Positions 35,601 to 52,200 of a DNA stretch of 64,000 bases are shown here, one piece after another. This stretch comes from Bacteroidales bacterium (GTDB taxonomy: Bacteria; Bacteroidota; Bacteroidia; Bacteroidales; UBA12077). The stretch covers positions 201-64,200 of the forward strand of contig WTBR01000027.1 in assembly GCA_013138975.1 (NCBI GenBank), given 5' to 3'. The notes beneath the pieces were generated by a model. The model was not told the origin of the DNA and made no database searches. It was given only the letters and a program-made list of their open reading frames with translations. Within the stretch, counting starts at the first letter, position 1; every line of letters starts with the position of its first letter. Both the position numbers and the translations under genes were made by a program.

Positions 35601-37398
35601 ATTTTGTTCTATAGTCTTTATCTTCATTATTCTTTTTAAAATTTATTAAATCCTGTATCATTCTATCTTTCTGTTCCAGATCCATTATATCTCCCAGAAA
35701 TATCAATCCTTTGTTGCCTGTTAGTTTTATACAGCTTTTTATTACATTCCTTAAATAATTATGACCATGAAAAGCTTGAATAACACTATTTATAATAATT
35801 ATATCAAAATCATTTTCCAGTATTTTCTCAATATCATGAGCGGGCAAGCATTCTAATTTGATATTAACAATTTTATTTTTTACAATATATTCCCTATTCC
35901 AATCTAGAATACTTTCAGATAAATCTGTTCCATAATATGATTTCACTTTAGGAGAAATTCTGTACATACTGATACCAGAAGCACAACCAATTTCTAAAAC
36001 TTTAATGTTTTCATTTAAATATGGATCTATTTTTTTTAATACGTTATCACCATACTCATCCATTTCATCTCTGGAAAAAGGTTTACCTGTAAAACTATTT
36101 AACCAACCTCCTCCTGTTATATCATCTATTGCATTTTCACCTACATGTTCCCAAAGTTCCTTATTCATTAAATTACTTTTATCACTTTCTTCAACAGCAT
36201 CTATATCATAGGTATCTGTACATAAAAATGTTTCTAAACAATTGCATTGCCATTGCAACCTGTTTAAAAGCCTTATATGCATTTTTTGAGAAATGACAAT
36301 ACGAATATTAGCATCATCTATCATGAATTTCAACCTGTTCTCTGGCAAATCAGTAGGAAGAGGGACAAACGCACCTCCTGACTTTAAAATACCAATAAGT
36401 GCAACCATTCGGTCATATTCACTATCCATTAAAACTCCAACAGGTTGATTTTTTGATAATTTATGTTCATCAATTAGATAATTGGCCAATTTATTAGAAT
36501 CTGAATTTAACTGAGTATAGGTCCAAAAATTATTATTCTTTATGATTGCAATATTATCTGGAGTTTTTAACAATTGATCATAAAACAACTTTACCCAATT
36601 TTCATTATCTGAATGTTTAATCTTGTTTTCATTTAGCACAGTCACTAACTCATTCTTTTCAAATTCATTTAGAAAATCAATTTCATTAATAGTTAATTCA
36701 TCAGGATTAGCTAATCCTATTTCGAGAATATTAATGTAATGATTTACAATTTTATCAATTCTTCTTTCATTATATAATTGTGGATCATATTCGATATTTA
36801 ATTCCAGATTCTCTGATTCACGAAAAAAAGAAAAAATAAAATTTGACTTTATGGAATTTAAAGATTTTCTATCATGTATATTTTCTAATAAAATACTAAC
36901 AGAAACTAACTCTTTAGTAAAATTCTTATTTTGTTTTAAAAAAGCTATTACCGGAAAATTCTGATTCTTAGTAGCTTCAATGATTAATTGTTTTGTTTTT
37001 ATTAACAAACTTTTAAATGTTTCATCCTCATCAATTCGGTTTCTCACAATTAAGATTGAATTTAGAGCTTCTTTTAATTCTTTACGTTCAAGTACAGGAC
37101 AAGTAATACTTATATCATTTTTTCCTGAGTATCTATACAGTAAGATATTTAATATATTAGTAAGAATAGTAAATAACAAATGATCAGAATTATTACTTAA
37201 TTTAAAAATCTTCTCAGTAATTGTTTCATTAAATATGAACTGTTTCAGTTGCAAAGAATCTGAACTTTTATAAGAATTTCTGAGAAAACTACTAAATAAA
37301 AAATCCCCTGAAAGTACATTTTTCCAAAATTCCTTTTCTTGTTTTTTTTCACTAATCACCAATAAATCATTACCCATGTTATTTTCACTTTTCATCAT
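32662..37398 (-). CDS. NRPS subunit: half-C-A(Leu-like code, interrupted by a class I SAM methyltransferase between a2 and a3)-T-E
   Basis: 1578-aa ORF. N-terminal C-lobe only (EKEFWKNVLSGDF..., NDISITCPVL, KNQNFPV). a2 ILKSGGAFVP (~36361-36395). MT motif VLEIGCASG at 35974-36000, preceded by ELWEHVGENAIDDITGGGWLNSFTGKPFSRDEMDEYGD. a3 AYITYTSGTTGTPKGV (~35286-35331). Code DAW(S/F)LGNVVK. T FFRLGGDSIKS (Ser 34186-34188). E IVIHHLAIDTVSWRI (HH 33652-33657). COM-donor-like tail ...ISQNELDSLFDA. Confidence 0.92.
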   Translation of the reverse strand: MMKSENNMGNDLLVISEKKQEKEFWKNVLSGDFLFSSFLRNSYKSSDSLQLKQFIFNETITEKIFKLSNNSDHLLFTILTNILNILLYRYSGKNDISITCPVLERKELKEALNSILIVRNRIDEDETFKSLLIKTKQLIIEATKNQNFPVIAFLKQNKNFTKELVSVSILLENIHDRKSLNSIKSNFIFSFFRESENLELNIEYDPQLYNERRIDKIVNHYINILEIGLANPDELTINEIDFLNEFEKNELVTVLNENKIKHSDNENWVKLFYDQLLKTPDNIAIIKNNNFWTYTQLNSDSNKLANYLIDEHKLSKNQPVGVLMDSEYDRMVALIGILKSGGAFVPLPTDLPENRLKFMIDDANIRIVISQKMHIRLLNRLQWQCNCLETFLCTDTYDIDAVEESDKSNLMNKELWEHVGENAIDDITGGGWLNSFTGKPFSRDEMDEYGDNVLKKIDPYLNENIKVLEIGCASGISMYRISPKVKSYYGTDLSESILDWNREYIVKNKIVNIKLECLPAHDIEKILENDFDIIIINSVIQAFHGHNYLRNVIKSCIKLTGNKGLIFLGDIMDLEQKDRMIQDLINFKKNNEDKDYRTKLSFSEELFLSRQFFNDLFIDFSEINNIQFSDKIFCIENELTKYRYDVILKIDKNNITQKNVKRNKNRHDLSVLNKHKNHDVIVNYDKNSVAYITYTSGTTGTPKGVIIGHESLANLCHWHNDYYEVSSLDKTTQYAGLGFDASVWEIFPYLIKGSSILLIDKSIKLEVDLLHKTFKKRGITISFLPTPICEQFIQNSEGNYLRCLLTGGDKLQTINSTYELFNNYGPTEGTVVSTSFKVEKNSKNIPIGKPISNAKVYILDPRNEKLVPKGVAAEMCLGGIGIAKGYLNNPELTSTNFIENPYLNNDIIYKTGDIVSWLDDGNIEFLGRKDEQVKIRGYRIELSEIEKRIREFVDIKDVAVSIKYNAHGDKYISAYYLSNLQIDEEVLKSQLLNELPTYMIPAFFTKLDVFPLTSNGKVDKKALPLPNLLKKDTYVPPRNDRDQMLINIYESTLGIEGVGIDDSFFRLGGDSIKSIQLISKINREGYQIKIKDIFEYPTIRDLSKILHNIKKTTNSKMVGKIPLTPIQEYFFSNHIIHKNHFNQSIVISKEGFLDEKMVTEMFFKIQNTHDSLKTVYKNVNGIIQPEILSGDLPLSLLKFDCVGCENTEEYIKEKSNIIQQGIDLGKGPMMKIGLFHLHKETRILIVIHHLAIDTVSWRILMEDMGMLYEQYMNKEKLEIISEETSYGLWAKKLKDYANSEEFSKQIDYWNSKPLIHPIKLDINNSEQSGVLDSRSISFSLSKETTHHLKTKVNNAFGTNINDILITGLCLGLNKTFKMQKIAIAMEGHGREDIFKELNLSRTTGWFTSLFPIFIDVEESNDLSDHIKNVKENLHKIPNKGIGYGILNFLTTPEKKDNNSTTVLPEIFFNYLGQFGEDISNLPFKVSYENMGDLLNYNEKRQFKLGFTGIIIKDRLEISATFSKKEFSDSVINNLIQNFNVSLNNIINFCLNKDDREYSPSDFTYKEISQNELDSLFDA
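35420..36180 (-). other. Embedded class I SAM-dependent methyltransferase (NRPS M-domain type) in the a2-a3 loop
   Basis: The a2-to-a3 spacing is ~345 aa, against ~68 aa in uninterrupted A domains of this window. SAM-binding motif VLEIGCASG. The W..S..G.P....EM.E motif is typical of NRPS M domains. Confidence 0.8.
36703..37398 (-). other. N-terminal truncated condensation domain (C-terminal lobe only)
   Basis: Residues ~15-232 are homologous to the other two half-C regions and to the C-terminal halves of full C domains. There is no HHxxxDG. The upstream gap is 80 nt. Confidence 0.7.
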
Positions 37399-37478: not shown

Positions 37479-40400
37479 CTAAAAAGAGAAGTTCGAATCT
37501 GAAAAAGATGAATCACTTACTATCATTTCTGTTGATAGCTTTATATCCTTCAGTAAAATATTTTTATCCTCAATAACCTGATTAAAAATCTTTTCTAAAT
37601 AATTTCCAATCTGCTCTATAAACAATTGCGAATAAGCATTTTTATTATATTTAAAAGATACTACCATTTCATCTTCATCAAATATTCTAATATCCATATC
37701 ATAATTTGTTGGATCAGAAATTTCAATTTTGTCAACTTTAATTTCGTTATTGGCTGAATTGTATAAATTAGTATCAGAAATATCTAATTTCTGATAATTT
37801 TGAAATCCCAAAATATGATCAAAAAGTTTTTCTTCAGAGGATTTCATCTTATTAATTTTATCTAATGGGAAATGGTGATGAATTTCACTTTCTAAAGCTT
37901 TTGACTGAATCTTTTTAATCAATTCAATAAAACTAGATTCTAGTTCTAATTGAATTCTTACTGGAATTGTATTAATAAATAATCCTAAAATTGATTCTAC
38001 TCCACTAATTTCAGAGGATCTACCTGAAACAACTATTCCAAATATAACATCTAATTTATCATTAAGCTTTGAAAGCAATAATCCCCACACTGCATGAAAT
38101 AATGTATTTAGTGTTACTTGAGCATTATTAGAAATCTGTTTTAAAATCGTTGTATTTTGATTTCCAAGAGAAATCTTATAATTCCCTTCATCATAAGCGA
38201 TCAATTCAGGTTCTGTTTTCTTATAATGTGATAGACTAGAGTTTTGTTTAAAGCCATCTAAATATTTACTCCAAAATTGTTCACTTTCGTTACTTTCAAG
38301 TTTATTAATCCATTTAATATAGTTTTTGTATTGTGTTGGATGTTCTAGACTAATTTTTCTACCAAGAGTTAATTGCCCATAAATCTCAGTTAATTCTTTT
38401 ACAATAATTCCAATACACCATCCGTCCATTAAAATATGATGAAAACTCCATACTAACTTATAATTTTGTTCAGCAGTTTTAAAAACATATACTCTCATTA
38501 GAACGTCCTTGCTTAAATCAAATGATTTTTCCTTATCATTCTTCATCAATTTATCGATCAATAATTCTTTCTCATTTTTATCATATATTTCAGTCAAATC
38601 TTGATAATTAAATTCAATTTTTCGTTCTTTTAAAACAACTTGCAAAGGAAGATCAACGTTTTCGTGAACAAATACAGTTCTTAATATATCATGTCTTTCA
38701 ATAATTTTATTAAAACTATTTCTTAGAACTTCGATTTTTAGATCCCCAGAAAGTGGTATCACAGATTGAATATTATATGAAGGAGATGTTTCGTATAATG
38801 AATGAAATAAAATACCTTCTTGTAATGGTGCTAACCTATAAATATCTTCAATATCAAATTTTGCACTTAAGTGATCCAGATCGTGAATGGGTAATCCCTT
38901 ATAAGTTAAATCTGATGGTGTTAATATTTTATCAGGAACATTAATGCAATGACTTATAATATCTTCCAAAGACTTCTGGTAATTATTAAGTAAGCTAAGA
39001 ACAAATTCCTCAGTGTAATATTTCTTCTTATAATTAAGAGAAATTGATAATTTACCACCTGCAAGTATACAAATGACTGAAAAATCCGAATTTGTAGTTC
39101 TATTTAAACTAACTGAATCACCGCTACTTTCATCTGCCATTCTAAACTTAGTCATTTGTGCAACATCTGAGTCAAATTGACCTAAGTAGTTGAACTCAAC
39201 ACCCATTTTATCATCAAACTGCATATCTTCCTTTAATTCTTCTGGCGTTAAGTATTTTAGAATACCATAACCAATCCCTTTTTGAGGCACTTGACGCAAG
39301 CTCTCTTTAACTTGTCTTAATTGTAATGATAGGTTATCTATTTGTCTCACATCAAGCAATACAGGATAAGCAGATGTAAACCAACCAATTGTTCTACTTA
39401 CATCAATATCTGGAAAAATATCTTCGCGACCGTGTCCTTCAAGATAAACAAGTACTTTTTCATTACCAAAAGTTTTTCGAATACTAGAACCTAATCCACA
39501 AAGAAGAATATCATTTATTTCTGTTCCATACGCTTGGTTTGTTTGAGTTATTAACTGAGTAGTTGTTTTCTCATCAAGAGAAAACTGCATGCTCGCTCTT
39601 TCGTTAATTTTTATATTTTCATGATTAAGATCTCGTTTTAACGGTAAAACCTCTTGATTAACAATTTCATTCCAAAATTCTTTTTGTTTTAGAATCTGAT
39701 CACTTTCTGCATATTTTGTTAATTTTTCAGACCAATCTTTAAATGAGTTGTTTTTTAATGGTAATGAAAGTGCTTGTCCTTTTTTTGCTTGTTCGTAAAG
39801 CATTTCTATATCTTCAAATATAATTCTCCATGAAACTCCATCAGTTACAAGATGGTGAATTACAATTAATAATCTATCTCCATCATCTAAGTGAAATAAT
39901 CCTAACTTCATTAGCGGTTCATTTTCTAAATCTATTGATCTTTGAATTTGATTAGCATAAGCTGTTAATTTCTCTTTAGCTTCACTCTCACCTTCAAGAT
40001 TGTATATGTTAAGTGAGATTGGAAAATCTTCTATTCCTTTATTATATAAACTAAAGCTTCCCTTATTTCTTTTACTTACAATTCTTAAAGCATCATGATG
40101 ATCCTGTAGTTTTCTAAATACCTCTTTTAAAATATTCTCATCAATTCTTTCTTCTGAAAACAACATTACGGACTGATTAAAATGGTGCATATCAATTTGA
40201 TTTTCAAAGAAAAAATGCTGTATAGGAGTTGGCTTAATATCACCACTTACATTATCTTGTGAAACTTCCTTTGTTTTCAATTTTACCTTAGTTGCCAAAC
40301 ATGAAATAGTTGGATTTTCAAATATTTCATTAACTCTAATAAGATAACCTTTCTCACTCATTTTTGCTTGTAACTGAATCGCTTTTATTGAATCACAACC

Positions 40401-43400
40401 CAAATTAAAAATATTATTATTAATTCCAATTTTATCAATACCAAGCACAAACGACCACGCTTCTGCTAACTTCTTCTCTATTTCATTTCTTGGAGCAACA
40501 AAATCATCTAATGCAACTTCAGGTTCAGGCAATGAATTCTTATCTACCTTTCCATTAATTGTTACAGGAATATTATCCATTTCAACAAAATATGTTGGAA
40601 CCATATAATCAGGCAACATGCTGCTCAAATGTTTCCTTAAGCTAGCTGCGCTTATTTCTGTAGTACTTTTTACTTCGGTAGCACCTTCTAATTCATGATA
40701 TAATCCTTTATAAAACTCATTACTTTTATGTGATTTAATAAAATGAGACATGTCGCAATTAAAATTAATATTCTCATCATTTTCCCTATGTAATGTTCCT
40801 TTAATTTTATAATCTGAATTTAATTCATTCTCATTAATATTACGAATTATGCTAGCTCTTATATAATCATTTTTAGATACTCTTATACCATCTTGGAAAA
40901 CTGGCACATAAACAGGTAACCAACAATATTCATTCTCAATAATATTTATTATTTCTTCATTTGTAATATGTAAATTTAACCACAATAAAAATCCATTAAT
41001 GTTAGAATCATTTTCAATAACTAAATGAATTTCATGTGATTGATTTACATCAATAATTTTCGTGTAATCAAGATCCTCAAACACATCAACACTTGAAATT
41101 ATTCTTTCTTTAGGGAAATTACGAACACATAATCTGATATCACTTTTATATTCTAAGTAATTGAAAACTTTATTGAAATATTCTTTCGTTTGAGAAGTTA
41201 ATAAATGATCTTCATTCCAATTTACCGGAAATGTGACAGCAGCAATTTTTGTTACACTTCTTTGCGGAATGATTTGTGCATTTTCTTTTATCAGATGACG
41301 TGTTTTATTTAAAATTATAGATGCACCCTCCGATCCTCCAATTGATCCAACGATTTCGGATAAGTGTACATCTGCTTTTTCAGGTAATTCAACCTTTGTT
41401 GCATCACCATGTATAATTATTATTTTATCTTGTAGTCCTAATTTTTCAATTTGTCTTTTTGCTTCTTTATAACTCTTCTCAAGTAATTCTATTGCATATA
41501 CTTTCTTTGCACCAGCCTCAATACAAAATCTAGCGAGAATAGCATCTCTACCTGTTCCAACATCTACGACAATTTTATCTTTAACACATTTCTGAATACC
41601 AATCTGATAACTCTTATTTCTTAACTCATCATTTGTCATTGCATGATAAAGTAATTCATCGTAAATATAATATTCACTAATAGATGGCCATATTTCAATA
41701 TCATTTGTAACATACTTTGTAAAATAAGCGCTTAAATAACTTTGTTTTTGATTGTCTTCCTTAGCTACCACAACAGCTTCTTTAATATATGGAAGTTTCA
41801 ACATTTGATTCTCAATTTCTCCTGTTTCAATTCTAAAGCCTCGTATTTTTACCTGTTGATCAATTCTACCTACCAATTGAATATTTCCATCAGATGACCA
41901 TTTGGCTTGATCTCCCGTTTTATAGAGTATTCCTTTGCCAAATGGATTTTTTATGAATTTTTCTTCTGTTAACTCAACATTATTCAGATATCCTTTGGCC
42001 AATCCTACGCCTCCAATACATAGTTCTCCTGATACACCAATAGGTTGTATATTTCCACTCTTATCAAGTATAAATAGAGATGTATTTGAAATTGGCTTCC
42101 CAATTTTAATAACACTATTGAGTTCCTGATTTCGATACATTGCAGATAGTACAGAACTCTCAGATACTCCGTATTCATTTACTATTTCAATATCTATGTT
42201 CTTTTCTTTAGTTTTTTCTATTGTACCATAATTTAACATATCCCCAGCCAGTGTGACAACCTGCAAGGAACTATTCGTTCCATCAGACATATTTTCAATT
42301 ATTGTATTATAGAGCTGAGGTATGCTAATAAAGTGTGTGACTTGATGTTGCTTTAGTATTGAATTTATATATTCTGGTTCAATAATTTTATTTTTTTCAA
42401 TAAATATTGTTTTCGAACCAGAAATCATAGGTGTAAAGAAGCTTGTAATAAATCCATCGAAGCCAAACGAAAACAATTGAAGAGAAACAGATTTTTCATC
42501 CATTTTATACTCATTTTTTCGGTGTAATAAAGTATTAACTATACTGTTATGATCTACAATCGTTCCTTTTGGGAATCCTGAAGTTCCAGATGTATATATA
42601 CTATAAGCTGTATTTGTAGGTTCTGAATCAATACCAATTTTATTAAAATCTAAAATATCGTCATTCTCAAAATCGAACAAATCATAATATATAGGTTTCA
42701 CATTTTGGTCTCTAATTTTCTTTATATCTTTCCTAAATATTAATCCATTTATTTTTTCTAATTCATCTACATTCGGCAATTGTTTGTTATTTTCAATTAT
42801 TTTCCCAATTAATTCTGAAAAAGTTATTTCCCCTTCACCGTATACAACTACATCAACATTAGAATCTTCAAGTAAAGTATTATAATCACTTGAAGCATAT
42901 GGCCCTCCAGTAATAATTGGTACATTATAACCGAGATTTCGTATAATAGATATTGTTTTATGAAAAAACTCTTTAAAATATGTTAAAGTTCTTATTCCGA
43001 TCACGTCAGGTTTAAACTCATCTAATAATTCTCTGAATTCCTGATAACTATCAAAATCTATCCTAGATTTTAATATTTTACCATTTACTTTTCTTCCAAA
43101 TTCTTTATTTATTTGAGTTAATAAATACACTAAACCTAATGGAGGATCCACAACATCATCAATATTCTTTGAATTGCTAGTAAAAAATTGAGATAAGTCT
43201 AAGAGTAAGACTCTTAAAGCATCCTTATCTTTATCTTTATCTTTATGAATAAATAACTTCGTTTTAATTAACTCATCCAAATTTGGTACTAGATAAGTAT
43301 CATCAGGCAATGGTTGTAGTCCATTCAATTCACTTTCTTCAATATTAAATATATCTAACAAATCACTGAACTTCTTAATTTTGTTCGGTAAATAACTACT

Positions 43401-46223
43401 ATAAACTTGGATAAGTTCTTTTTCAGTAAACGCGGCTAATTGATGAGGGAGAACAGCCAAAAGTCTATCTTTTGACAAAAAATAATTGTTTAAAAAATCT
43501 CCTTGATATTTCTTAGTAAAAACCTTATCGAAAGGTAATGTGTCGGGTAACTCATTATATGCGAATTTTACTGAATTTTCAATATCAATTTTTCTAACGC
43601 CATTTTCTAGTGCTAGTTTTTCCATTTCAGTATTAGGAAAAATCTTTAAGATAAAGATAAATGGAAAATGTAATGTTTTAATACTTTTAATGAAATTAAG
43701 TGTTTTGGTTGCTTCTTCTTCCGTTTCAGAAGGGAATCCATGCATAGTATACAACCTCAAAATTACTTGAGGGTATTTTGATGTAAAATATTTAATATTT
43801 TTATATAACTTATCAATATTAAGATTCTTTTTTATTAATTTCTGGAGTCTTGGAGAAGCTGTTTCAAGTGCAAGAGCAAGACCAACTAAACCAGCTTTGA
43901 CCATTAAATCAATGTAGTCCTCAGTTAAAATATCGCCCCTCAAACCATTCGGAAAGAAAAGTTGAATCTTTAATCCATTTTCTATTATTAAATTAAAAAA
44001 CCTAGTACTATTTTTTATATTTAAATTAAAAATATCATCAATAAAAGAAAATCTTCGAACTCCAATATTGTAATACATTAAGACTTCTTCAAATATATTT
44101 TCTGCTGAACGAATAATATTTTTCTTTGGCCAAATTTTATGACAATAAGTACATTTGTAAGGACATCCTCTTGTTGCAAGAATATTAATTCCGTTATTAA
44201 TCATTCCTAGACCTATGTATTTACTGTATTCATTATTATTAATGAATGATCTATCCGGAAACGGTAAGGAATCTAAGTCAGTTATTTGCTCTCTGTTATT
44301 TGTAATTATTATATCCTCATTCAAACTTTTTTCTTGATATAAACTTGAAGGTATTAAATCGCTTTCAGACAACAAAAAATTCACATTTGCGTCTTTTAAC
44401 ATATATTTTATCCTTTCCTCTGGATAATCAGAATCAATTGGCAAGAAAGCATTTCCTGATTTTAAAACAGCAAATAATGAAATTCCTATTTGTAAGGGAT
44501 TTTCAAGTATTATTGCAATAATTTCATTTTTAATATTTTTTTTACTAATAAGACTAGCTAATCGATCAGATTTAACATTTAATTCTCTATATGTTAGTTT
44601 TTCATTTTTATATAAAAGAGCTTCTCCATCTGGATTTTTCTCTACCTGCTCTTCAAATAATTGATGAATTGTACTTTTTCTAGAATAGTCATTATTAGTA
44701 TTGTTAAAATCAAATAACAACTGTTGTTTTTCTTCATTAGAAATTATTACAATCTCAGAGATTGGTATATCTATTCCACTATTTATTTGATTTATGATAT
44801 TTTTAAAAAATATGATAAAGCGATCAATGGTTTCCTTTTTAAATAATTGAGTGTAATATTCAAAATTTAAGACTAAATAATCATCAAACTCTGATACCGA
44901 CAGAACTAAATCAGCTTTTGACACACTTTCTACATGCGAACCTATATTTTTTAATGTAAATAAATTATCAGGCTGATTATCATTATTATGAAAATTAAAC
45001 CCTATTCCAGAAATGGCATTATTGCTTTCATTTCTTTTTATTGCTACTTTAGTTACTAAATCATCAAGGGGGTATTCTTGATTTGCAAAAGTTTCCAGAG
45101 TATCGTTTTTTATTATTTCAATAAACTCCTTAATAGTTATTTCTGGAGACAAGTTATTTCTAAAGAATATAGTATTAACAAACATTCCTGATATTGAACT
45201 TAGCTGTGCATGTGTTCTACCATTCGTTACTGAACCAATTATAATATCTCTCTTTCCACTAATCTTTGACAAAAAGATGTTGTAAATTGCTAACAAACTC
45301 ATATAAATAGTAGTACCGCATTCTGTAGAAATTTGTCTTATAGAATCGGTTTCTTCCTTATTTAATAAGAAATTAACATTAGCTCCATTATAATTTACTG
45401 TTTTCTTGGTTTCAAAATTATCAGATAAATTAAGAGTGGTCCATTCTTTCGAAAATTTGTTCGTCCAGAATTTTTCTTGTAATTTAATTCGATCCTTTTG
45501 TTCTTTGCAATTTAACCATTCCGAATAATCAATATATCCCAATGGTAACTGTTTCAATTCTTTATTATCAAATAATCTGGTAAATTCACGTTTAACAATA
45601 TTAAGCGAAAAGCTATCACTTATTATATGGTGCATATCAACAAACAATATTTTCTCATTCGAATTACATGTAATTAGTTTAGCTCGAAATAAAGGTGCTT
45701 TGTTTAAATCGAAAGGTTTAATAAATTCAAGTTTTGCCTTCTCAACATCTTCCTTTTGCAAAAAGCTCTCAATAATCTCCAATTTAACGTTCTTGTTAAT
45801 TTTTTGAACAATTTCACCATCAATTATATCAAAACTTGTTTTAAAACTATCGTGTCTCGAAATCAGCTTTTCAAATACTTTTATTACCAATTTAAGATCT
45901 GTATTAAATGGAAGATTTATCGCCTTTGATATATTGTAAGCAATACTTTGTAGATCTTGTTCCTGTGTTAAATACAATCGTTGTTGTGCCGGGGTTATTC
46001 TATAATATTCTTTTTTTTCAGCTTTTTTAATTGTTTTAGACAATGCTTTGTTTTGTCTTTGTTTATTAAGATAACTTATCAATGAATCCCTATTTTCAGA
46101 GATCTCTTTTTTAAGTGCATTATTAAGAACTCCGCTAGGAGCAGTTACATCTATTTTATCATTTTTTATATTCAACTGAATATTCAATTTATTCAATTTA
46201 ATTAAAAGGTTTGAAGTACTCAT
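37479..46223 (-). CDS. NRPS subunit: dock-C-A(Tyr-like code; doubly interrupted by radical SAM/B12-like unit and PRMT-like methyltransferase)-T-E-C(DCL)
   Basis: 2914-aa ORF whose ATG overlaps the upstream TGA (ATGA at 46220-46223). C1 MHHIISDSFS (HH 45627-45632). a2 AVLKSGNAFLPID (44433-44471). Radical SAM motif CPYKCTYC (44142-44165). a3 TAYSIYTSGTSGFPKGT (42561-42611). a5 NEYGVSE. a8 GRIDQQVKIRGFRIETGEIE (~41811-41870). MT motif VVDVGTGRDAILA (41533-41570). a9/a10 LPDYMVP...INGKVDK (~40540-40616). T FNLGCDSIKA (Ser 40389-40391). E IVIHHLVTDGVSWRI (HH 39852-39857). C2 SFHHILMDGWC (HH 38436-38441). The protein ends ...SDSNFSF. Confidence 0.92.
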   Translation of the reverse strand: MSTSNLLIKLNKLNIQLNIKNDKIDVTAPSGVLNNALKKEISENRDSLISYLNKQRQNKALSKTIKKAEKKEYYRITPAQQRLYLTQEQDLQSIAYNISKAINLPFNTDLKLVIKVFEKLISRHDSFKTSFDIIDGEIVQKINKNVKLEIIESFLQKEDVEKAKLEFIKPFDLNKAPLFRAKLITCNSNEKILFVDMHHIISDSFSLNIVKREFTRLFDNKELKQLPLGYIDYSEWLNCKEQKDRIKLQEKFWTNKFSKEWTTLNLSDNFETKKTVNYNGANVNFLLNKEETDSIRQISTECGTTIYMSLLAIYNIFLSKISGKRDIIIGSVTNGRTHAQLSSISGMFVNTIFFRNNLSPEITIKEFIEIIKNDTLETFANQEYPLDDLVTKVAIKRNESNNAISGIGFNFHNNDNQPDNLFTLKNIGSHVESVSKADLVLSVSEFDDYLVLNFEYYTQLFKKETIDRFIIFFKNIINQINSGIDIPISEIVIISNEEKQQLLFDFNNTNNDYSRKSTIHQLFEEQVEKNPDGEALLYKNEKLTYRELNVKSDRLASLISKKNIKNEIIAIILENPLQIGISLFAVLKSGNAFLPIDSDYPEERIKYMLKDANVNFLLSESDLIPSSLYQEKSLNEDIIITNNREQITDLDSLPFPDRSFINNNEYSKYIGLGMINNGINILATRGCPYKCTYCHKIWPKKNIIRSAENIFEEVLMYYNIGVRRFSFIDDIFNLNIKNSTRFFNLIIENGLKIQLFFPNGLRGDILTEDYIDLMVKAGLVGLALALETASPRLQKLIKKNLNIDKLYKNIKYFTSKYPQVILRLYTMHGFPSETEEEATKTLNFIKSIKTLHFPFIFILKIFPNTEMEKLALENGVRKIDIENSVKFAYNELPDTLPFDKVFTKKYQGDFLNNYFLSKDRLLAVLPHQLAAFTEKELIQVYSSYLPNKIKKFSDLLDIFNIEESELNGLQPLPDDTYLVPNLDELIKTKLFIHKDKDKDKDALRVLLLDLSQFFTSNSKNIDDVVDPPLGLVYLLTQINKEFGRKVNGKILKSRIDFDSYQEFRELLDEFKPDVIGIRTLTYFKEFFHKTISIIRNLGYNVPIITGGPYASSDYNTLLEDSNVDVVVYGEGEITFSELIGKIIENNKQLPNVDELEKINGLIFRKDIKKIRDQNVKPIYYDLFDFENDDILDFNKIGIDSEPTNTAYSIYTSGTSGFPKGTIVDHNSIVNTLLHRKNEYKMDEKSVSLQLFSFGFDGFITSFFTPMISGSKTIFIEKNKIIEPEYINSILKQHQVTHFISIPQLYNTIIENMSDGTNSSLQVVTLAGDMLNYGTIEKTKEKNIDIEIVNEYGVSESSVLSAMYRNQELNSVIKIGKPISNTSLFILDKSGNIQPIGVSGELCIGGVGLAKGYLNNVELTEEKFIKNPFGKGILYKTGDQAKWSSDGNIQLVGRIDQQVKIRGFRIETGEIENQMLKLPYIKEAVVVAKEDNQKQSYLSAYFTKYVTNDIEIWPSISEYYIYDELLYHAMTNDELRNKSYQIGIQKCVKDKIVVDVGTGRDAILARFCIEAGAKKVYAIELLEKSYKEAKRQIEKLGLQDKIIIIHGDATKVELPEKADVHLSEIVGSIGGSEGASIILNKTRHLIKENAQIIPQRSVTKIAAVTFPVNWNEDHLLTSQTKEYFNKVFNYLEYKSDIRLCVRNFPKERIISSVDVFEDLDYTKIIDVNQSHEIHLVIENDSNINGFLLWLNLHITNEEIINIIENEYCWLPVYVPVFQDGIRVSKNDYIRASIIRNINENELNSDYKIKGTLHRENDENINFNCDMSHFIKSHKSNEFYKGLYHELEGATEVKSTTEISAASLRKHLSSMLPDYMVPTYFVEMDNIPVTINGKVDKNSLPEPEVALDDFVAPRNEIEKKLAEAWSFVLGIDKIGINNNIFNLGCDSIKAIQLQAKMSEKGYLIRVNEIFENPTISCLATKVKLKTKEVSQDNVSGDIKPTPIQHFFFENQIDMHHFNQSVMLFSEERIDENILKEVFRKLQDHHDALRIVSKRNKGSFSLYNKGIEDFPISLNIYNLEGESEAKEKLTAYANQIQRSIDLENEPLMKLGLFHLDDGDRLLIVIHHLVTDGVSWRIIFEDIEMLYEQAKKGQALSLPLKNNSFKDWSEKLTKYAESDQILKQKEFWNEIVNQEVLPLKRDLNHENIKINERASMQFSLDEKTTTQLITQTNQAYGTEINDILLCGLGSSIRKTFGNEKVLVYLEGHGREDIFPDIDVSRTIGWFTSAYPVLLDVRQIDNLSLQLRQVKESLRQVPQKGIGYGILKYLTPEELKEDMQFDDKMGVEFNYLGQFDSDVAQMTKFRMADESSGDSVSLNRTTNSDFSVICILAGGKLSISLNYKKKYYTEEFVLSLLNNYQKSLEDIISHCINVPDKILTPSDLTYKGLPIHDLDHLSAKFDIEDIYRLAPLQEGILFHSLYETSPSYNIQSVIPLSGDLKIEVLRNSFNKIIERHDILRTVFVHENVDLPLQVVLKERKIEFNYQDLTEIYDKNEKELLIDKLMKNDKEKSFDLSKDVLMRVYVFKTAEQNYKLVWSFHHILMDGWCIGIIVKELTEIYGQLTLGRKISLEHPTQYKNYIKWINKLESNESEQFWSKYLDGFKQNSSLSHYKKTEPELIAYDEGNYKISLGNQNTTILKQISNNAQVTLNTLFHAVWGLLLSKLNDKLDVIFGIVVSGRSSEISGVESILGLFINTIPVRIQLELESSFIELIKKIQSKALESEIHHHFPLDKINKMKSSEEKLFDHILGFQNYQKLDISDTNLYNSANNEIKVDKIEISDPTNYDMDIRIFDEDEMVVSFKYNKNAYSQLFIEQIGNYLEKIFNQVIEDKNILLKDIKLSTEMIVSDSSFSDSNFSF
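40674..41714 (-). other. Embedded PRMT-like (protein arginine methyltransferase fold) SAM methyltransferase in the a8-a9 loop
   Basis: EYYIYDELLYHAMTNDELRNKSYQIGIQKCVKDKIVVDVGTGRDAILARFCIEAGAKKVYAIE...IIIIHGDATKVELPEKADVHLSEIVGSIGGSEG parallels PRMT1 (YF.SY...IHEEMLKD.VRT..Y...I......KVVLDVGSGTGIL..FAAKAGA.KV.GIE...V..I.GK.EEVELP..KVDIIISEWMGY.L.YESM). A beta-barrel-like C-terminal part follows. The a8-to-a9 spacing is ~418 aa, against ~72 aa in an uninterrupted domain of this window. Confidence 0.7.
42774..43220 (-). other. B12-binding-like Rossmann domain embedded in the A domain (C-terminal to the radical SAM core)
   Basis: ALRVLLLDLSQ...VDPPLGLVYLLTQINKEFG...FKPDVIGIRTLTYF...NVPIITGGPYASSDY...VDVVVYGEGEITFSELIGK follows the pattern of the N-terminal domains of the two stand-alone radical SAM proteins (PP.G...L; PDV.GI; .GG; .GEGE..F..L). 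Confidence 0.6.
43524..44246 (-). other. Radical SAM core embedded in the A domain (a2-a3 loop)
   Basis: ILATRGCPYKCTYCHKIW, with Cys687/691/694 at 44142-44165. Downstream elements match a radical SAM TIM barrel: FIDDIFNLN, GLVGLALALETASPRLQKLIKKN (the GxxxxxxGxES element) and LYTMHGFPSETEEE. Confidence 0.8.
46056..46223 (-). other. TubC-type N-terminal docking region
   Basis: MSTSNLLIKLNKLNIQLNIKNDKIDVTAPSGVLNNALKKEISENRDSLISYLNK. The upstream subunit ends ...DTNIENFEL. Confidence 0.6.
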
Positions 46224-49200
46224 AATTCAAAATTTTCTATATTAGTATCTTTAATAATATTTTTTTGTGTAATAGATCCTATTAATGCTGAAATCTCACT
46301 AATAGTTGGATGAGCAAAAATATCAGCCAATAAAAGAAACACTTTATATTTATAATTAATTTTAGAAATTACAATGTTAGCTTTGAGAGAGTGACCTCCC
46401 AAATCAAAGAAATTAGCATTAATACTAATTTTTTCTTTAGGTATATTTAAGACTTCGGACCATATTGCTATAAGAGCTGATTCAATTTCATTTGTAGGTG
46501 CAATATAATCATCTCCAACTTTAACCTCTGGTTTAGGTAAAGCAGTTTTATCTATTTTACCATTTGGAGTTAATGGTAATTCTTGAATTTCCACATAATA
46601 AGAAGGAATCATGTAGGTAGGAAGGTTTTCCTTAAGATAATCATGTAATAATTGTTTTAAGCCAGGAATAGAATCTTTTGGAATATAATATGCACATATT
46701 AATTTATCTTCATCTTTCTCTCCAACAACTGTTACAACTACATTATCTAGTTTTCCATGAGTAAGCATTACCGAACGAATATCTTCTAGTTCTATTCGAA
46801 TGCCCCTTATTTTAATTTGATTATCAATCCTTCCTAATAATTCTATTTGTCCATTCTCAAGCTCTCTACCTAAGTCCCCTGTTTTATACAAAAAATCAGT
46901 TTCATCTAGGTTAAATGGATTTTTTATAAAATATTGTATATTTAATTCTTTTGCATTGTAATATCCTTTGGTTCTATAAGGAGTACGAATATGCACCTCT
47001 CCCTTTACTCCTATTGGGCAAATATTTAAATATTTATCCAGGATTATAAATTTTGATCCTTTGATAGGATTCACGGGTATTAACGAACGATTAACATCTT
47101 TTGGCTTTATTCTGTAAGCAGACTTTGCAAGTGTGGTTTCAGTTGGCCCATAAACATTTAACAGTTGAATTCGATCATTATAAATCTCATACCAATCTTT
47201 TAATTCCAATGGATTTATTTTTTCACCTGCCAGTAAAATATATTTTAAAGATTTAAAATTATCTTTATTTAAGTTTGCTTGATTTATTAATTTAAAGAGA
47301 CTTGGAACACAATGTATTAAGTTGATTTCGTTATCATCAATCCATTGTACTAATTTTACAGAATCTTTCATTGATTCTTCTTCAATAATACAAATAGTAC
47401 CACCTGAACACAAAGGAACAAAGATGTCTCTTAAAAAGACATCAAACCCAATGCTAGTAAACTGACTAATATTATATTTTTGGGTTATATCTAGTTCATT
47501 TATTTCCCAATCAATAAAATGTAATAAACTTTTATTTTCTCCTATTATCGCTTTTGGAGTACCAGTTGTACCAGAAGTAAAATAAATATATATCGAATCA
47601 TCAGGTAAATATTTTATGTCTTCCAATATATTTTTCCCACTAATCGATTCGATAAAGGTATTGTTTTCAATATCTATTATTTGAATTGATAAATCATTAA
47701 TATATTCTTGTTGCAGTGTTTGATAATTTTTTTTATCAGCAAAAATGCAGTTAATCGCTGTTAATTTAATCATCCTTTTTATCCTGTTTAAAGGATATGT
47801 ATTATCAAGAGGCACAAAAACACACCCTGATTTAATAATTCCTAATATTAAAGATATTACTTCTACCCTGTCGGTTACGTATATTCCAATAAATGTTTCT
47901 TTTTTAATTCCAAATTTCTGAATTAATGTAGCAATACCAATGGCTTTACTATATAATTCGCTATATTTTACATCTCCATTTTTAGCTCGTATCGCAACAT
48001 TTTCTGAATAAGTAGTAAAACTTTTATCTAAATGATTCTGAATACAACACGATTCTATTTCTTTTTGTTTCAAATTAGAATTAAAGTCCCTTATTTTATT
48101 TTCTTTTTCTTTTTCTTCAATTACATCTATTTTTGATAATAAAACTTGTGGGTTTTGGAGTATTTGTTCAATAATCCTCTTAAAACATCCAATTATTCTG
48201 TTTATTGTTTTATCCTTAAATAGTTTTGTTCTATACTCTATGTTAAGTGAAATTATATCAACACCTTCAATTACACGAAAATATAAATCAAATTTAGTAC
48301 TTCGCATACTATGCACATATTTCTCTTCTTCCGTATCACTATTAGAAATTATATTGTATTTTTCACTTTTTATTAAATTAAATAGCACATCGAAAACCGG
48401 ATTTCGACCTATATCACGAGGTGCATTAAGCTGATCAACAATATCTTCAAATTGATATTCCTGATTCTCATAAGCCTGTAACGTGTTATTTTTTACTTCT
48501 GATAAAAACTCATTATAACTTTTTTCGCCTATCGGGAAATTACGCATTATCAAAGTATTTAGAAAAACTCCAATAATCTTTTCTAAATCCACATGATTAC
48601 GTCCGGCAACTGGTGTCCCAATAATGATATCTTCTTGATCGCAAATCTTAGACAACAGTATATTGAACACAGATAATAAAAAAATATACAATGTTGTTTT
48701 GGTTTCTTGTACTAATGCCTTTATCAAATCAGTTTGTTCTCTATCTACTATAACATGTACATATGCTCCCTCAAATTCCTTAACCAAGGGTCTTGTATAA
48801 TCAAATGGTAAATCCAAAACCTGAAGCTCCCCTGATAACATATTAAGCCAATACTTCTTCTGCTTATTTATTCGTTCTTGTTGTTCCTTACTATTTTGCC
48901 ATTCACTAAAATCCTTATATTGTAAACGTAATAGATCCAACTTTTCCCCTAATAATAATTGATTGAACTCTTCTTCAAGTACAGTATGAGAATGCCCATC
49001 ACAAATAATGTGATGCATATCTACAATTAGTACTGATTTTCTCCCTTTTATTTGTAATAACTCAACCCTAAGTAAGGGAGTTTGTGATAAATCAAATGGG
49101 CGAATAAATTCTATCCGTTTATTTTCTAAGAAATTTTCTTCTATAGTTTCTTCAATTATTTTAAAGTCCACCTTCGAATGAATTCGCTGAACAAGAGATT

Positions 49201-52200
49201 CATCTTTCATCTCAAAACTGGTTCTGAAATTTTCATGCCTACTGATAATTTTGCTAAAAATTAATTCTAACCTTTCTTTACTTATTATTTCTGGCAAGTG
49301 AATTTGCATTGGCATATTATAAGCCGTATTTTTCGGCTCCATTTGTTGTAAAATAAACAAACGTTTTTGGGCTGAGGATACATCATAATACTCTCGATGT
49401 TCTGCTTTTGATATGACAATAAAATCTTTCATATTGCTTGCCCCTATATTGCAATACAGGTCTCTAATAGTTGAATGTAAAAACACTTCTTTTAAGGTGA
49501 ATTTAACACCCATTTCTTTATGGATTTTTCCCATTAACATTGAAGCTTTAAGTGAATGTCCACCTAAAGCAAAAAAATTATCCTTAACGCCTATTTCTTC
49601 TCTTGGAACATTTAATACTTCTGACCAAATTTCTACTAATTTTTCTTCTACTTTATTTGATGGGGCAACATATTTGTCGCTCGCTTTTACTTCAGGAAAA
49701 GGTAATACCTTACGATTTAGTTTCCCATTAGTAGTTAAGGGTAATTCATCTAATTCTACAAAATAAGATGGAATCATATAATCTGGCAAAAAATCTTTTA
49801 TATAACTTCTACACTCTTCCTTATCAAAACTATTTTCACATATTATATAAGCACACAAATACTTTTCGTCATTATCTTCCCGAGCTAAAACAACACATTC
49901 TTTTATATTTTCATATTTCAGCAAAGTGCTTTCTATCTCGCCTAACTCGATCCTATAACCCCGAATTTTTACTTGTTGGTCAATCCTGCCTAAAAATTCA
50001 ATATTACCATCCGGCATCCAACGAGCTAAATCACCTGAGCGATATAATCGTTCCCCTTTTTTAAAGGGATGTAATATAAACTTCTCTGCTGTTAGATTAT
50101 CATTATTTGCATAACCACGACTTAAGCCAGTACCTCCTATGCATATTTCACCAGCGACTCCTACTGGTAATAATTCTAAAGAATTTCCTAAAACATAAAC
50201 AGAAGAATTCAATATAGGACTCCCAATAGGAATATTGTCAACATAATCCTTTTCACATTCATAGTACAATGCACATACGGTTGTTTCTGTTGGACCATAA
50301 GTGTTGTAAACCCTAGAAAATGCTATTATATTATTAATATAGGAATAGCGCAATTGATCTCCCCCACTTATAAAGAGCCTTACATTAAGTAATACATGAG
50401 AAGGAAATAAATTTATCTCATTTAGCAATAAAGGAGAACAACTTATAACCGTTATATTGTAATTCAATATTAATTCACCAATCTTTTCTACATCTAATAT
50501 CTCATCCTTTCCCATAACTGCAAGCATTCCTCCTTGTGTTAGAATTGGATATACTTCCTCTACAAATGTATCAAATGAAATAGATGCTTGTTGCATCATA
50601 ACATCTCTAGAATTAAGGCAAAACTCTTCCTGAAAAGCGCTGATGTATGAAACTACATTTCTATGTTCAACTATTACACCTTTAGGTTTACCTGTCGAGC
50701 CTGACGTGTAAATTATATATGAAAGATCAGATGGTTTGTTAATGTTCTCCAAATTACTTTTAGACCCTTGATATATTCTTTTATCATCTAAATCAATACC
50801 AATTCCTATATTTCTAAAATTGCTTAAATTAACTTGTGAAAAAAATAAAATATCAATTTCAGAATCTTCAACAGTATAATGAATTCTCTCTTCAGGATAA
50901 CTACTATCTATCGGAACATAACACCCTCCTGATTTCATAATCCCTAACATCCCTATTAGCATAAGTAATGAATGATCTGCTAGTAATCCTATTTTGCTTC
51001 CGTTAACAACTCCCTTATTTCTGCAATATCTAGATAATTGATTTGCCCTACTATTTAATTCTCGATATGTTAAACATCCTTCTCCTTTTAATACCGCAAT
51101 ATTATCTGGCGTTCTTTTTACTTGCTCTTCAAATAATTGATGAATAACTTTATCTTTAGGATAATCTCTTGCTGTATCATTAAATTCATAAAGCAACTGC
51201 CGTTTCTCAGATTCAGTAAGGATATTCAATTCACTGATAGTTTGGACAGAGTTGTCAGAGAAACTCTTAACTAATTCTTTGAAGTATCCTATAAAGCGTT
51301 CTATCGTTTCAGGCTTAAATAACTTCGTGCTATATTCAAATATCAATTCTATGCCCGATCCACAATCTAATGCCGTTAAACTTAAATCAAACTTCGAAAT
51401 ATTTTTTATATGATGTAATTCTTCATCTATCAAATTTATTGTTTCATGTTGTGTTACTTCACTATAATTGAACATTACATCAAACAAAGGATTACGGCTT
51501 GTGTCACGATCTTTGACAATTTTTTCTACTAAATCCTCAAACGGGTACTCTTGGTTCTCATATGCTTCAAGAGTATTCTCCTTTAATAAATGGAAATAAT
51601 CTCGTATACTACTTTCTCTATTTACCTCATTGTGTAAAGCTAATGTATTAACAAACATTCCTGTAACACAATCCAATTCAGCATTGCGACGAGCAGCAAT
51701 TGGAAGGCCAACAATAATATCTTCTTGACCACTTAACTTTGATAAAAGAATATTATATATAAACAATAGTGACATAAAAGGAGTTAAACCATGCTCCTTA
51801 CAAAGATCTCTTATGATACTTGTTTCTTCTGAACTTAGCATAAAACGCACACTCGAACCAGTAAAATCCTGCATTTTAGGGCGACTAAAATCAGTTGGCA
51901 GTTGCAAAACAGGAATTTCACCACTAAACCTCTCTAACCAATACTGTTTTTGTTCATTTATCTGATCCTGTTGTTCTTTGCTATTTTGCCATTCACAGTA
52001 ATCTTTGTATTGTAAACGTACAGGTTTTATTTCTTCTCCATTTAATAATTTTGTAAATTCTTCTGCTAGAATTGCATGAGAACGACCATCACTGATGATA
52101 TGATGCATATCTAGCATTAACATATCAGAACCATCGGAGACTTCCAAATAAGCTATCCGAAATAAGGGAGCAATACTTAGGTCAAATGATTGAATAAACG

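Follow-up and report, generated by a model that had tools for sequence, protein, structure and literature searches.

In the stretch of DNA analysed here (the window, 64,000 nucleotides of contig WTBR01000027.1 from a Bacteroidales bacterium), the adenylation (A) domain of one NRPS protein has, between its core motifs a2 and a3, an insert of ~580 aa that joins a radical SAM (rSAM) core to a C-terminal Rossmann domain of the B12-binding type. The best explanation is that this insert works in cis as a tailoring domain of a kind not described before, predicted to carry one [4Fe-4S] cluster and, C-terminal to the rSAM part, a cobalamin-type Rossmann domain. By a cobalamin-dependent radical reaction it would C-methylate, in cis, the residue tethered to the carrier, a reading that we consider somewhat more probable than all else.

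A split adenylation domain with two inserts

The host gene is a single stop-free ORF whose product reads dock-C-A-T-E-C, with A split by the rSAM/B12 unit, when mapped with Pfam and our own HMMs (Table 1). The frame is continuous throughout the 2914 aa, as the earlier note had stated for the C-A-T-E-C context. The arrangement is that of an interrupted A domain, whose halves share one reading frame with the foreign domain between them. Checked on the DNA, motif a2 (AVLKSGNAFLPID) lies at 44433-44471, a3 (TAYSIYTSGTSGFPKGT) at 42561-42611 and the cysteine motif CPYKCTYC at 44142-44165, which bears out the proposed placement of the insert between a2 and a3 of a single A domain; in a regular-expression search the a2-a3 gap measured 612 aa, versus 67 aa in o10202, an intact A domain of the window. 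When an intact A domain was used as BLAST query, the host A domain was returned in three pieces (aa 512-619, 1207-1502 and 1862-1895), and the A-domain HMM matched it over profile positions 2-123, 99-444 and 447-487.

The translation has core motifs a1-a10 all intact, the P-loop of a3 and the lysine of a10 among them. HMM alignment to PheA gives the specificity code DGTITAEVLK, ending on K517, and thereby reproduces the code read earlier by hand, whereas pairwise methods disagree with it in giving S at position 4. By prediction, the host A domain is functional and of Tyr type. In the AF2 model of A core plus insert (pLDDT 90.2, pTM 0.87) the A core can be superimposed, across the insert, on A domains that have no interruption (4d4i, TMt 0.76; 1amu_A, TMt 0.69), and it is predicted to come together again around its cargo. 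The earlier note had proposed a profile search and an AlphaFold model among its checks, and both came out in favour of the split domain: PF04055 and PF02310 score above threshold in the insert with A-domain halves on both sides, and the confident model matches uninterrupted A-domain structures.

The same note had described a single insert. The unit at a2-a3 stands, but a PRMT-like class I methyltransferase at a8-a9, retrieved by Pfam, BLAST and PDB sequence search, had been overlooked, and the host A domain is doubly interrupted. The PRMT-like insert recurs in homologues P0229, P0259 and P0145. The a2-a3 loop is the known site of side-chain methyltransferases that interrupt A domains, and a8-a9 is that of backbone methyltransferases. 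The next gene in the window has a class I methyltransferase at a2-a3 of its own A domain. The 64-kb window has a GC content of ~27% and a gene set of the anaerobe type.

Table 1. Features of the host NRPS gene (positions in the window; aa, residues of the 2914-aa protein)
Feature	Position	Strand	Evidence
Whole NRPS gene, 2914 aa, dock-C-A(rSAM/B12)(MT)-T-E-C	37479..46223	-	Stop-free single ORF; Pfam domains; own HMM map
TubC_N-type N-terminal docking domain, aa 5-53	46065..46211	-	Pfam PF18563, E 8.6e-10
Condensation domain, aa 68-484	44772..46022	-	C-domain HMM positions 1-435/444, E 1.8e-151; Pfam Condensation
A domain part 1, aa 512-619, a1 (LTYRELN) and a2 (LKSGNAFLPID)	44367..44690	-	BLAST vs intact A domain, query 3-111; A-HMM 2-123; motifs from translation
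Insert, aa ~620-1200: rSAM barrel, helical region, C-terminal Rossmann B12-binding domain; permuted class-B-type	42624..44366	-	Family HMM 4-542/561, E 3.9e-263; AF2; Foldseek
Radical_SAM core, aa 683-845, holding CxxxCxxC (44142-44165)	43689..44177	-	PF04055, E 5.5e-21; three Cys invariant in 87 family members
B12-binding Rossmann domain, aa 1027-1138, C-terminal to rSAM core	42810..43145	-	PF02310, E 6.3e-12, above cutoff; GGP and GEGE invariant
A domain part 2, aa 1201-1502, a3-a8	41718..42623	-	BLAST vs intact A domain, query 154-460; YTSGTSGFPKG (P-loop), NEYGVSE, GELCIGG, YKTGD, GRIDQQVKIRGFRIE read in translation
Second insert, aa 1503-1861, PRMT-like class I methyltransferase between a8 and a9	40641..41717	-	Pfam PRMT5 and Methyltransf_18; PDB sequence search PRMT6, E 1.8e-16
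A domain part 3, aa 1862-1895, a9 (LPDYMVP) and a10 (NGKVDK)	40539..40640	-	BLAST query 470-503; A-HMM 447-487
Thiolation (carrier) domain, aa 1911-1983	40275..40493	-	PF00550; T-HMM E 1.2e-29
Epimerisation-type domain, aa 2003-2433	38925..40217	-	C-superfamily HMM; HHLVTDGVSW and FNYLGQFD in translation
C-terminal condensation domain, after E, aa 2457-2895	37539..38855	-	C-HMM positions 2-443, E 8.2e-147

The rSAM/B12 insert and its relatives

Taken alone, the insert scores 75.9 bits with Radical_SAM (cutoff 29.5) and 45.8 bits with B12-binding (cutoff 32.1), profile scores that lie far beyond chance. All residues invariant among the 87 family members, including C90, C94, C97, GGP and GEGE, are kept in it. 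The AF2 model of the insert (pLDDT 88.6, pTM 0.87) shows alternating strands and helices that match rSAM structures, with five parallel strands in the B12 part, so that the CxxxCxxC motif, the rSAM barrel elements and the Rossmann region noticed earlier were all recovered. Foldseek matches included AprD4, MgmA, TsrM, CysS and TokK, and the best single PDB match of the rSAM core, by sequence as well as by fold, was the diol dehydratase AprD4, which is not known to use cobalamin. The Rossmann part aligns to B12 regions that are N-terminal in TokK and in the KedN5 and HpnR models; it is a domain of the PF02310 type, predicted to bind cobalamin, and a DUF512 match was absent from the insert at E<=1. 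None of the NCBIfam B12-rSAM equivalog cutoffs was reached, the best match (BchE) scoring 101 bits against 481 and all 26 matches (BchE, PhpK, ApyD, KedN5, HpnR, rSAM_ocin_1 and others) lying far below.

The order of the two domains, rSAM and then B12, is the reverse of that in canonical class B enzymes, whose B12 domain is N-terminal, and on the BchE, KedN5 and HpnR profiles the coordinates of the two parts come out exchanged. The insert is accordingly assigned, on its sequence, to a separate permuted family. With the class B C-methyltransferases (CysS, TokK/ThnK, PoyB/PoyC, DscE) it shares fold families and motifs, at an identity of only ~15-20%. By their PDB titles, the crystal structures of CysS and TokK contain pantetheinylated substrates. 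The class B enzymes are free-standing and have B12 N-terminal to rSAM, whereas the insert is reversed and embedded in an A domain. The only characterised Cbl-rSAM enzyme with rSAM first and a C-terminal cobalamin domain is Mmp10 (PMC13331322). The insert has the domain order of this Mmp10/DUF512 class, but its Rossmann domain is of the PF02310 type, with five strands in the model, as opposed to the 4-stranded DUF512 domain, and Mmp10 is a weak fold match (rank 49 in Foldseek).

Closer at hand, the same NRPS operon includes two stand-alone genes for radical SAM plus B12-binding proteins, o12794 (12794-14482) and o23166 (23166-24857), which had been thought to resemble the insert in their B12 domains. 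This likeness is weakly supported for o23166 (26% over 100 aa, E 0.012) and fails for o12794, which gave no significant match. Both have the canonical order of B12 and then rSAM, their matching regions appear in swapped order on the family HMM, and identity to the insert is ~21% in the rSAM core; the insert is not a relative of these two proteins. Among their best partial matches in NCBIfam is rSAM_ocin_1, a model of RiPP C-methylases.

As in other A domains interrupted by methyltransferases (TioS A4-M-A4, PDB 5WMM; KtzH; ColG), the tailoring domain is spliced in and the A core is intact, and 5WMM was itself among the fold matches of the modelled A core plus insert. The A domain of ColG is di-interrupted, as is the host A domain. 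The differences lie in the cargo, here a two-domain metallo-enzyme (Fe-S plus B12-type) of ~580 aa as against a class I SAM methyltransferase of ~300-400 aa, in the chemistry, which here would be radical and oxygen-sensitive, and in the a8-a9 domain, which is PRMT-like in place of the usual NRPS N-MT. The interruptions known so far from A domains are all simple domains that tolerate oxygen (class I methyltransferases, KR, Ox, monooxygenase). What appears to be new is an rSAM core followed by a canonical Rossmann B12 domain inside an A domain. The earlier claim that no rSAM or cobalamin enzyme has been characterised in this position agrees with the literature searched, two recent B12-rSAM reviews included, where no description of the arrangement was found; this literature lacked most subscription papers, and absence from it is not proof.

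The unit is no one-off: dozens of NRPS clusters across several phyla have it, with many uncultured anaerobes among the carriers, and it also occurs in other positions and free-standing. When cluster representatives at 50% identity were examined, at least 60 of the best 150 had the unit, mostly at the a2-a3 site. Of the 65 units in these 60 NRPS representatives, ~52 lie at a2-a3, 8 stand between A and T and 1 is at a8-a9. Wherever a downstream T domain was mapped, the unit shares its module and is N-terminal to it, the remainder of the A domain separating the two in the case of a2-a3 units. Junctions are shared by ~50 independent NRPS representatives (A-HMM ~110 upstream, ~100-140 downstream). 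A scan of a genome collection gave three true relatives, in MAGs of Aminicenantes, Deltaproteobacteria and Spirochaetales, while a metagenome scan with generic patterns (RGCPxxCxxC, GEGE) returned no further family members, only distant canonical class B rSAMs (24-36% identity). The 78 free-standing relatives also have rSAM before B12, and free-standing members sit between NRPS genes; A_N-rSAM proteins adjoin complete A domains, and A_N-rSAM-half-C proteins occur as well. Embedded and free-standing forms are interleaved in a crude NJ tree, and no single origin of the embedded forms can therefore be claimed.

Proposed function and competing explanations

For the insert, the analysis provides an architecture, its conservation, a predicted fold and a predicted diversity of substrates. 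The earlier proposal of an in-cis radical, probably cobalamin-dependent C-methylation is still the best hypothesis. The predicted specificities of host A domains number at least 11 (Thr, Lys-like, Ile, Pro, Leu, Tyr, Val, Ser, Asp, Asn and Glu), and chemistry specific to Tyr is therefore unlikely. Bottromycin is one case of the range of residues accepted by B12-rSAM peptide C-methylases. Ranges about as wide as that of the host specificities are known for such enzymes from polytheonamide and discodermin (PMC12858407). Depletion of Gly/Ala hosts was considered as support for side-chain chemistry and dropped as not significant, Gly-specific hosts numbering 0/54 against a background of 3%.

In the proposed pathway, the A domain would adenylate its own amino acid and load it onto the T domain of the same module, from which the phosphopantetheine arm would bring the thioester to the rSAM active site. 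Reductive cleavage of SAM would yield a 5'-deoxyadenosyl radical that abstracts hydrogen from an unactivated sp3 carbon of the side chain, the likeliest position being Cbeta, since every predicted substrate has it. The substrate radical would receive a methyl group from methylcobalamin, to be regenerated by a second SAM. The PRMT-like domain may attach a further N- or O-methyl, and the E domain would epimerise the residue, which the next C domain would take on. The E domain of the window requires Calpha-H, and this argues against alpha-methylation here.

The apparent affinity to class B enzymes counts for methylation: MgmA, TsrM, CysS and TokK are among the fold and sequence matches, and the KedN5 and HpnR models, to whose B12 regions the insert aligns, are those of methylcobalamin-dependent C-methylases. 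Location in the module of the T domain, N-terminal to it, lends positional support to a presumed cis action on the carrier, and the C-methylation of discodermin by DscE, a stand-alone B12-rSAM enzyme, provides a precedent in an NRPS pathway. On the other side, AprD4 as best PDB match of the rSAM core would count against methylation, as would the fact that the family has no characterised member and all its NCBIfam scores are below cutoff. These same data, with the cyclase BchE as top partial NCBIfam match, could point to an insert that is active without methylating, performing on the tethered residue some other radical chemistry (dehydration/dehydroxylation, desaturation, C-C or C-heteroatom bond formation, rearrangement), with a Rossmann domain that has another cobalamin role or none, as in AprD4, OxsB and BchE. 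Cbl-rSAM enzymes other than methyltransferases are indeed noted in a recent review (PMC13331322). Such a role is unlikely, though worth serious attention: the Rossmann domain exceeds the PF02310 threshold, matches best the B12 domains of the genuine methylases TokK, KedN5 and HpnR and has motifs invariant across phyla, and the very broad predicted substrates fit generic C-H methylation better than chemistry that depends on a functional group.

Free-standing and A_N-rSAM-only members indicate that the enzyme need not sit inside an A domain, and the substrate might then be a peptidyl intermediate. It is conceivable, but we think quite improbable, that the unit has the growing chain or a neighbouring residue as its substrate, its place in the A domain being a mere anchor to the assembly line; the A_N-rSAM-half-C proteins and the action of DscE on a finished peptide would agree with this. 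All cis units with a mapped downstream T domain lie, however, in the module of that T domain, and the recurrence of particular host codes (Thr x8, Pro-like, Ile, Lys-like), together with the pairing of a Tyr-like code with a PRMT-like MT in P0229 and P0259, suggests a tie to the module's own residue. A radical epimerase replacing E domains in anaerobes, comparable to PoyD in proteusins, would account for the absence of E domains from most rSAM-containing modules. This role was rejected as very improbable, given that each of the 51 C domains that follow an E-less rSAM module was LCL by a DCL/LCL classifier that was correct for 16/16 DCL and 321/326 LCL held-out domains. Moreover, the module of the window has an E domain of its own, and rSAM epimerases are not known to have a B12 domain. 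Radical SAM peptide epimerases do occur in RiPP pathways (EreD, PMC9259500). Least credible of all is an artefact or relic, that is, a mis-assembly or frameshift joining different genes, or an inactive remnant. The window comes from one 64-kb contig, its proteins are singletons in the database, and one homologue (L090) has the unit divided over two ORFs at the junction; yet the frame is continuous, base composition is even, the same junctions recur in the ~50 independent representatives and the MAGs of the three other lineages, and the insert, 47-57% identical to its relatives, retains every invariant residue.

C-methylation on the carrier is also at the centre of a wider reading, to which we give an even chance: that the insert is, as far as the literature searched goes, the first recognised example of a widespread NRPS tailoring domain of anaerobes, a circularly permuted cobalamin/rSAM enzyme that would C-methylate amino acids on the carrier, on line and by radical chemistry, at carbons that are not activated. 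Its placements, at the same strength as part of this joint reading, would be splicing at a2-a3 or a8-a9, insertion between A and T, or docking via vestigial A and C fragments.

Implications for peptide biosynthesis in anaerobes

Tools for BGC annotation may not yet call the domain, in which case structure predictions for such clusters may miss the modification. A self-contained A(rSAM)-T construct would join substrate, carrier and radical enzyme by covalent bonds and so be convenient for studies of B12-rSAM mechanism and structure, and the unit is a possible engineering part for site-specific C-methylation. If the proposed function is true, the family would add a third structural arrangement to the two classes of Cbl-dependent radical SAM enzymes that current reviews list, and would open a non-ribosomal route to residues of the tert-leucine, beta-methyl and 3-methylproline types, so far known mainly from RiPPs. 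NRPSs would then be able to functionalise unactivated C-H bonds without O2, by means of an Fe-S/cobalamin enzyme within the module, which would explain how strict anaerobes diversify their non-ribosomal peptides.

An adenylation domain interrupted at two sites

The window has a GC content of ~27%, and all its large ORFs lie on the minus strand, within one NRPS cluster. Translation of ORF 37479-46223 (-) gave 2914 codons without a stop, bearing out the continuous frame described in the earlier note, whose a2, CPYKCTYC and a3 landmarks were confirmed to the nucleotide. When an intact A domain from the window served as BLAST query, the host A domain aligned as three collinear segments (aa 512-619, 1207-1502 and 1862-1895), meaning that it is interrupted twice: ~580 aa separate a2 from a3 and ~360 aa separate a8 from a9. 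The a2-a3 gap, previously estimated at ~610 aa against ~68 aa in intact domains, measured 612 aa by regular expression, versus 67 aa for protein o10202, whose A domain is intact. The presence of a radical SAM/B12 (rSAM-B12) insert in an A domain is confirmed.

Features of the 2914-aa NRPS and of its cluster
Feature	Position	Strand	Basis or detail
a2 motif AVLKSGNAFLPID	44433-44471	-	located on DNA
CPYKCTYC	44142-44165	-	located on DNA
a3 motif TAYSIYTSGTSGFPKGT	42561-42611	-	located on DNA
TubC_N dock, then Condensation		-	Pfam, whole protein
AMP-binding, two stretches		-	Pfam, whole protein
Radical_SAM	aa 683-845	-	Pfam, whole protein
B12-binding	aa 1027-1138	-	Pfam, whole protein
PRMT5/Methyltransf_18-type methyltransferase	aa ~1517-1659	-	Pfam, whole protein
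AMP-binding_C, PP-binding, two further Condensation-type domains	C-terminal to methyltransferase	-	Pfam, whole protein
PRMT-like class I methyltransferase between a8 and a9	40641-41717, aa 1503-1861	-	PRMT6 E 1.8e-16; Pfam PRMT5/Methyltransf_18
Class I methyltransferase at a2-a3, ORF 32662-37398	~35464-36258, aa 381-645	-	Methyltransf_31/12/25/11
A domain of degenerate appearance, ORF 2795-10138	~6581-7984, aa 719-1186	-
Acyl_transf_1 inside that A domain	aa 838-1123	-	GHSFGE motif intact
Stand-alone B12-rSAM o12794	12794-14482	-	562 aa, canonical order
Stand-alone B12-rSAM o23166	23166-24857	-	563 aa, canonical order
MacB/FtsX-type permease	271-2643	-	790 aa, downstream end of cluster

The host A-domain translation shows all ten core motifs, among them the P-loop and the a10 lysine. 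HMM alignment to PheA reproduced the hand-read specificity (Stachelhaus) code DGTITAEVLK, which agrees at nine of ten positions with DGTITAEVAK, the classical Tyr code; in a check, the PheA sequence used gave DAWTIAAICK at the canonical positions. Reassembly of the A core, which the earlier note had left to structure prediction, is supported by an AlphaFold2 model spanning the A core and the insert (aa 505-1505; mean pLDDT 90.2, pTM 0.87), in which the two pieces are predicted to form a normal core around the insert. Foldseek aligned this model to uninterrupted A domains over ~1000 columns, with target-normalised TM scores of 0.76 (4d4i) and 0.69 (1amu_A).

The a8-a9 insert is PRMT-like, unlike the usual NRPS N-methyltransferase. 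Similar domains occur in related NRPSs, three of which carry one in the same A domain as an rSAM unit: P0229 and P0259 have, as in the window, a di-interrupted Tyr-type A domain, and P0145 is a third di-interrupted case whose code differs from the Tyr type. The next gene, 32662-37398 (-), encodes a Leu-type A domain (DAWFLGNVVK) whose methyltransferase insert, with relatives at 50-59% identity, uses the same a2-a3 site as the rSAM-B12 unit.

Fold and domain order of the insert

The excised insert scored 75.9 bits (E 5.5e-21) against Radical_SAM and 45.8 bits (E 6.3e-12) against B12-binding, above the curated Pfam cutoff in each case; in the protein, these domains lie between the AMP-binding stretches, in line with the domain call of the earlier note. 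An AlphaFold2 model of the insert alone (pLDDT 88.6, pTM 0.87), disordered only in terminal linker residues, has AprD4, MgmA, TsrM, MiaB/RimO, CysS and TokK as top structural matches, and a PDB sequence search matched the barrel to AprD4 and the Rossmann part to TokK. No NCBIfam family cutoff was approached (best match 101 bits, cutoff 481). Insert residues 39-246 align to BchE profile positions 156-360 and residues 431-574 to KedN5 positions 17-159, and o23166 aligns to the insert-family HMM with its regions in swapped order. The domain order of the insert is the reverse of that of canonical class B enzymes. According to a December 2025 review (PMC13331322), only Mmp10 among the characterised Cbl-rSAM enzymes, with a four-stranded DUF512 domain, has its cobalamin domain at the C-terminus. 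In contrast to Mmp10, the insert gave no Pfam match to DUF512 and carries a PF02310-type Rossmann domain, five-stranded in the model, which suggests that it represents a third arrangement beside the canonical and Mmp10/DUF512 ones.

GGP and GEGE are invariant in the Rossmann domain of the insert family. The resemblance previously noted to the two stand-alone rSAM proteins of the operon holds as generic kinship; identity of ~21% in the rSAM core speaks against a close one.

Distribution and architectures

A word-indexed search returned at least 932 relatives; the best 120 share 47-57% identity with the insert. Family members occur in NRPS or NRPS-PKS clusters of MAGs labelled Aminicenantes, Deltaproteobacteria, Spirochaetales, Acidobacteriota, Clostridia, Bacteroidales and others. 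Architectures were mapped for 127 of them using HMMs of the insert family and of A, C and T domains taken from the window. Most are free-standing proteins of ~540-600 aa with the same reversed order (78), followed by true A_N-rSAM-A_rest (21; A_N denotes the a1-a2 piece), A_N-rSAM of ~724 aa (12), A_N-rSAM-half-C of ~1040 aa (9), rSAM-A_rest (3) and four singletons, rSAM-T and A-rSAM-T-C among them.

In an exhaustive phmmer search (query aa 505-1505) of 1.84 billion 50%-cluster representatives, the unit was present in 60 of the best 150 matches, with 65 units in total. About 52 interrupt an otherwise complete A domain in its a2-a3 loop, with the same junctions; six sit in A(full)-A_N-rSAM-T with a vestigial A_N piece (P0131, P0133, P0186, P0188, P0200, P0213), two in A-rSAM-T without that piece (P0145 aa 2852-3385; P0244) and one at a8-a9 (P0126 aa 3142-3674). 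Wherever a downstream T domain was mapped, the unit is N-terminal to the T domain of its own module. Because identical junctions recur in independent assemblies, the insert is very unlikely to be a product of mis-assembly. The architecture, whose novelty the earlier note had queried, is thus widespread and not unique to the window. In the metagenomic homologue L090 (~2440-2570) the interrupted A domain is spread over two overlapping ORFs, broken exactly at the A_N/rSAM junction, either by a genuine split or by an assembly frameshift.

Three proteins of the cluster (32662-37398, 19044-22997 and 10202-12769) open with a truncated C domain of which only the C-terminal half is present (aa ~14-250; HMM ~182-443). 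Each comes after a protein ending in a complete C domain, with a stand-alone B12-rSAM gene in between in two of the three cases, and A_N-rSAM-half-C fusions exist among homologues (e.g., P0010). Half-C and A_N fragments may be docking pieces. TubC_N docking domains start the NRPS proteins 37479-46223, 46220-52690 and 2795-10138.

Candidate chemistry and cluster surroundings

Host A domains are predicted to cover at least 11 amino-acid classes (Thr 8; Lys-like 7; Ile 6; Pro-like at least 5; Leu 4; Tyr-like 4; Val 3; Ser, Asp, Asn and Glu 1 each), so the chemistry must target a feature common to these residues. We lean towards the in-cis radical C-methylation proposed in the earlier note, a plausible function: the insert would act on the residue tethered to the T domain of its own module, methylating a side-chain sp3 carbon, most plausibly Cbeta, in a cobalamin-dependent manner. 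This is made plausible by the conserved Rossmann domain, which in sequence and profile searches has its closest matches among B12 domains of genuine methylases, and by the a2-a3 location, the site of side-chain methyltransferase inserts. It also draws on CysS and TokK, class B methylases acting on pantetheinylated substrates (PDB titles), and on DscE, a B12-rSAM that methylates an NRPS product (PMC12858407).

The main rival, some other radical chemistry, would fit the best matches AprD4 and BchE and a family with zero characterised members; given the methylase-like B12 domain, we consider it rather unlikely. Action of the insert on the peptidyl chain, not on its own module's residue, is less likely still. 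Epimerisation, with the rSAM unit replacing an E domain, is disfavoured, since a DCL/LCL classifier trained on C domains following E domains or plain modules (16/16 DCL and 321/326 LCL correct on held-out domains) assigned every one of the 51 C domains that follow E-less rSAM modules to the LCL type. E domains require a Calpha-H, and that of the window's module looks intact in translation (HHLVTDGVSW, FNYLGQFD), which makes alpha-methylation unlikely there.

Elsewhere in the cluster, the apparently degenerate A domain of 2795-10138 (-) has lost its P-loop (IAIFNTYSKKNE replaces YTSGSTGxPKG), its a8 is degenerate and alignment gives E, not K, at the last code position; the AT inside it may have taken over T-domain loading. 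For o12794 and o23166, the RiPP C-methyltransferase model rSAM_ocin_1 is among the best partial NCBIfam matches, far under cutoff; it ranks first for o12794 and is outscored by BchE and PhpK for o23166. Both may be C-methylases that, like DscE, act on the peptide at a late stage, and the permease is probably the exporter.

The lack of a characterised precedent asserted in the earlier note holds: the searched full texts, mostly outside subscription journals, nowhere describe an NRPS module or A domain that houses a radical SAM or cobalamin domain. Two B12-rSAM reviews (December 2025, February 2026) use none of the words NRPS, nonribosomal, adenylation and permutation, and relatives carry only automatic database names ('AMP-binding protein', 'radical SAM protein', 'YgiQ family'). 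The case for absence from the literature is strong, short of conclusive. This genuine and widespread architecture, apparently unstudied so far, combines two known kinds, interrupted A domains and class B radical SAM enzymes.
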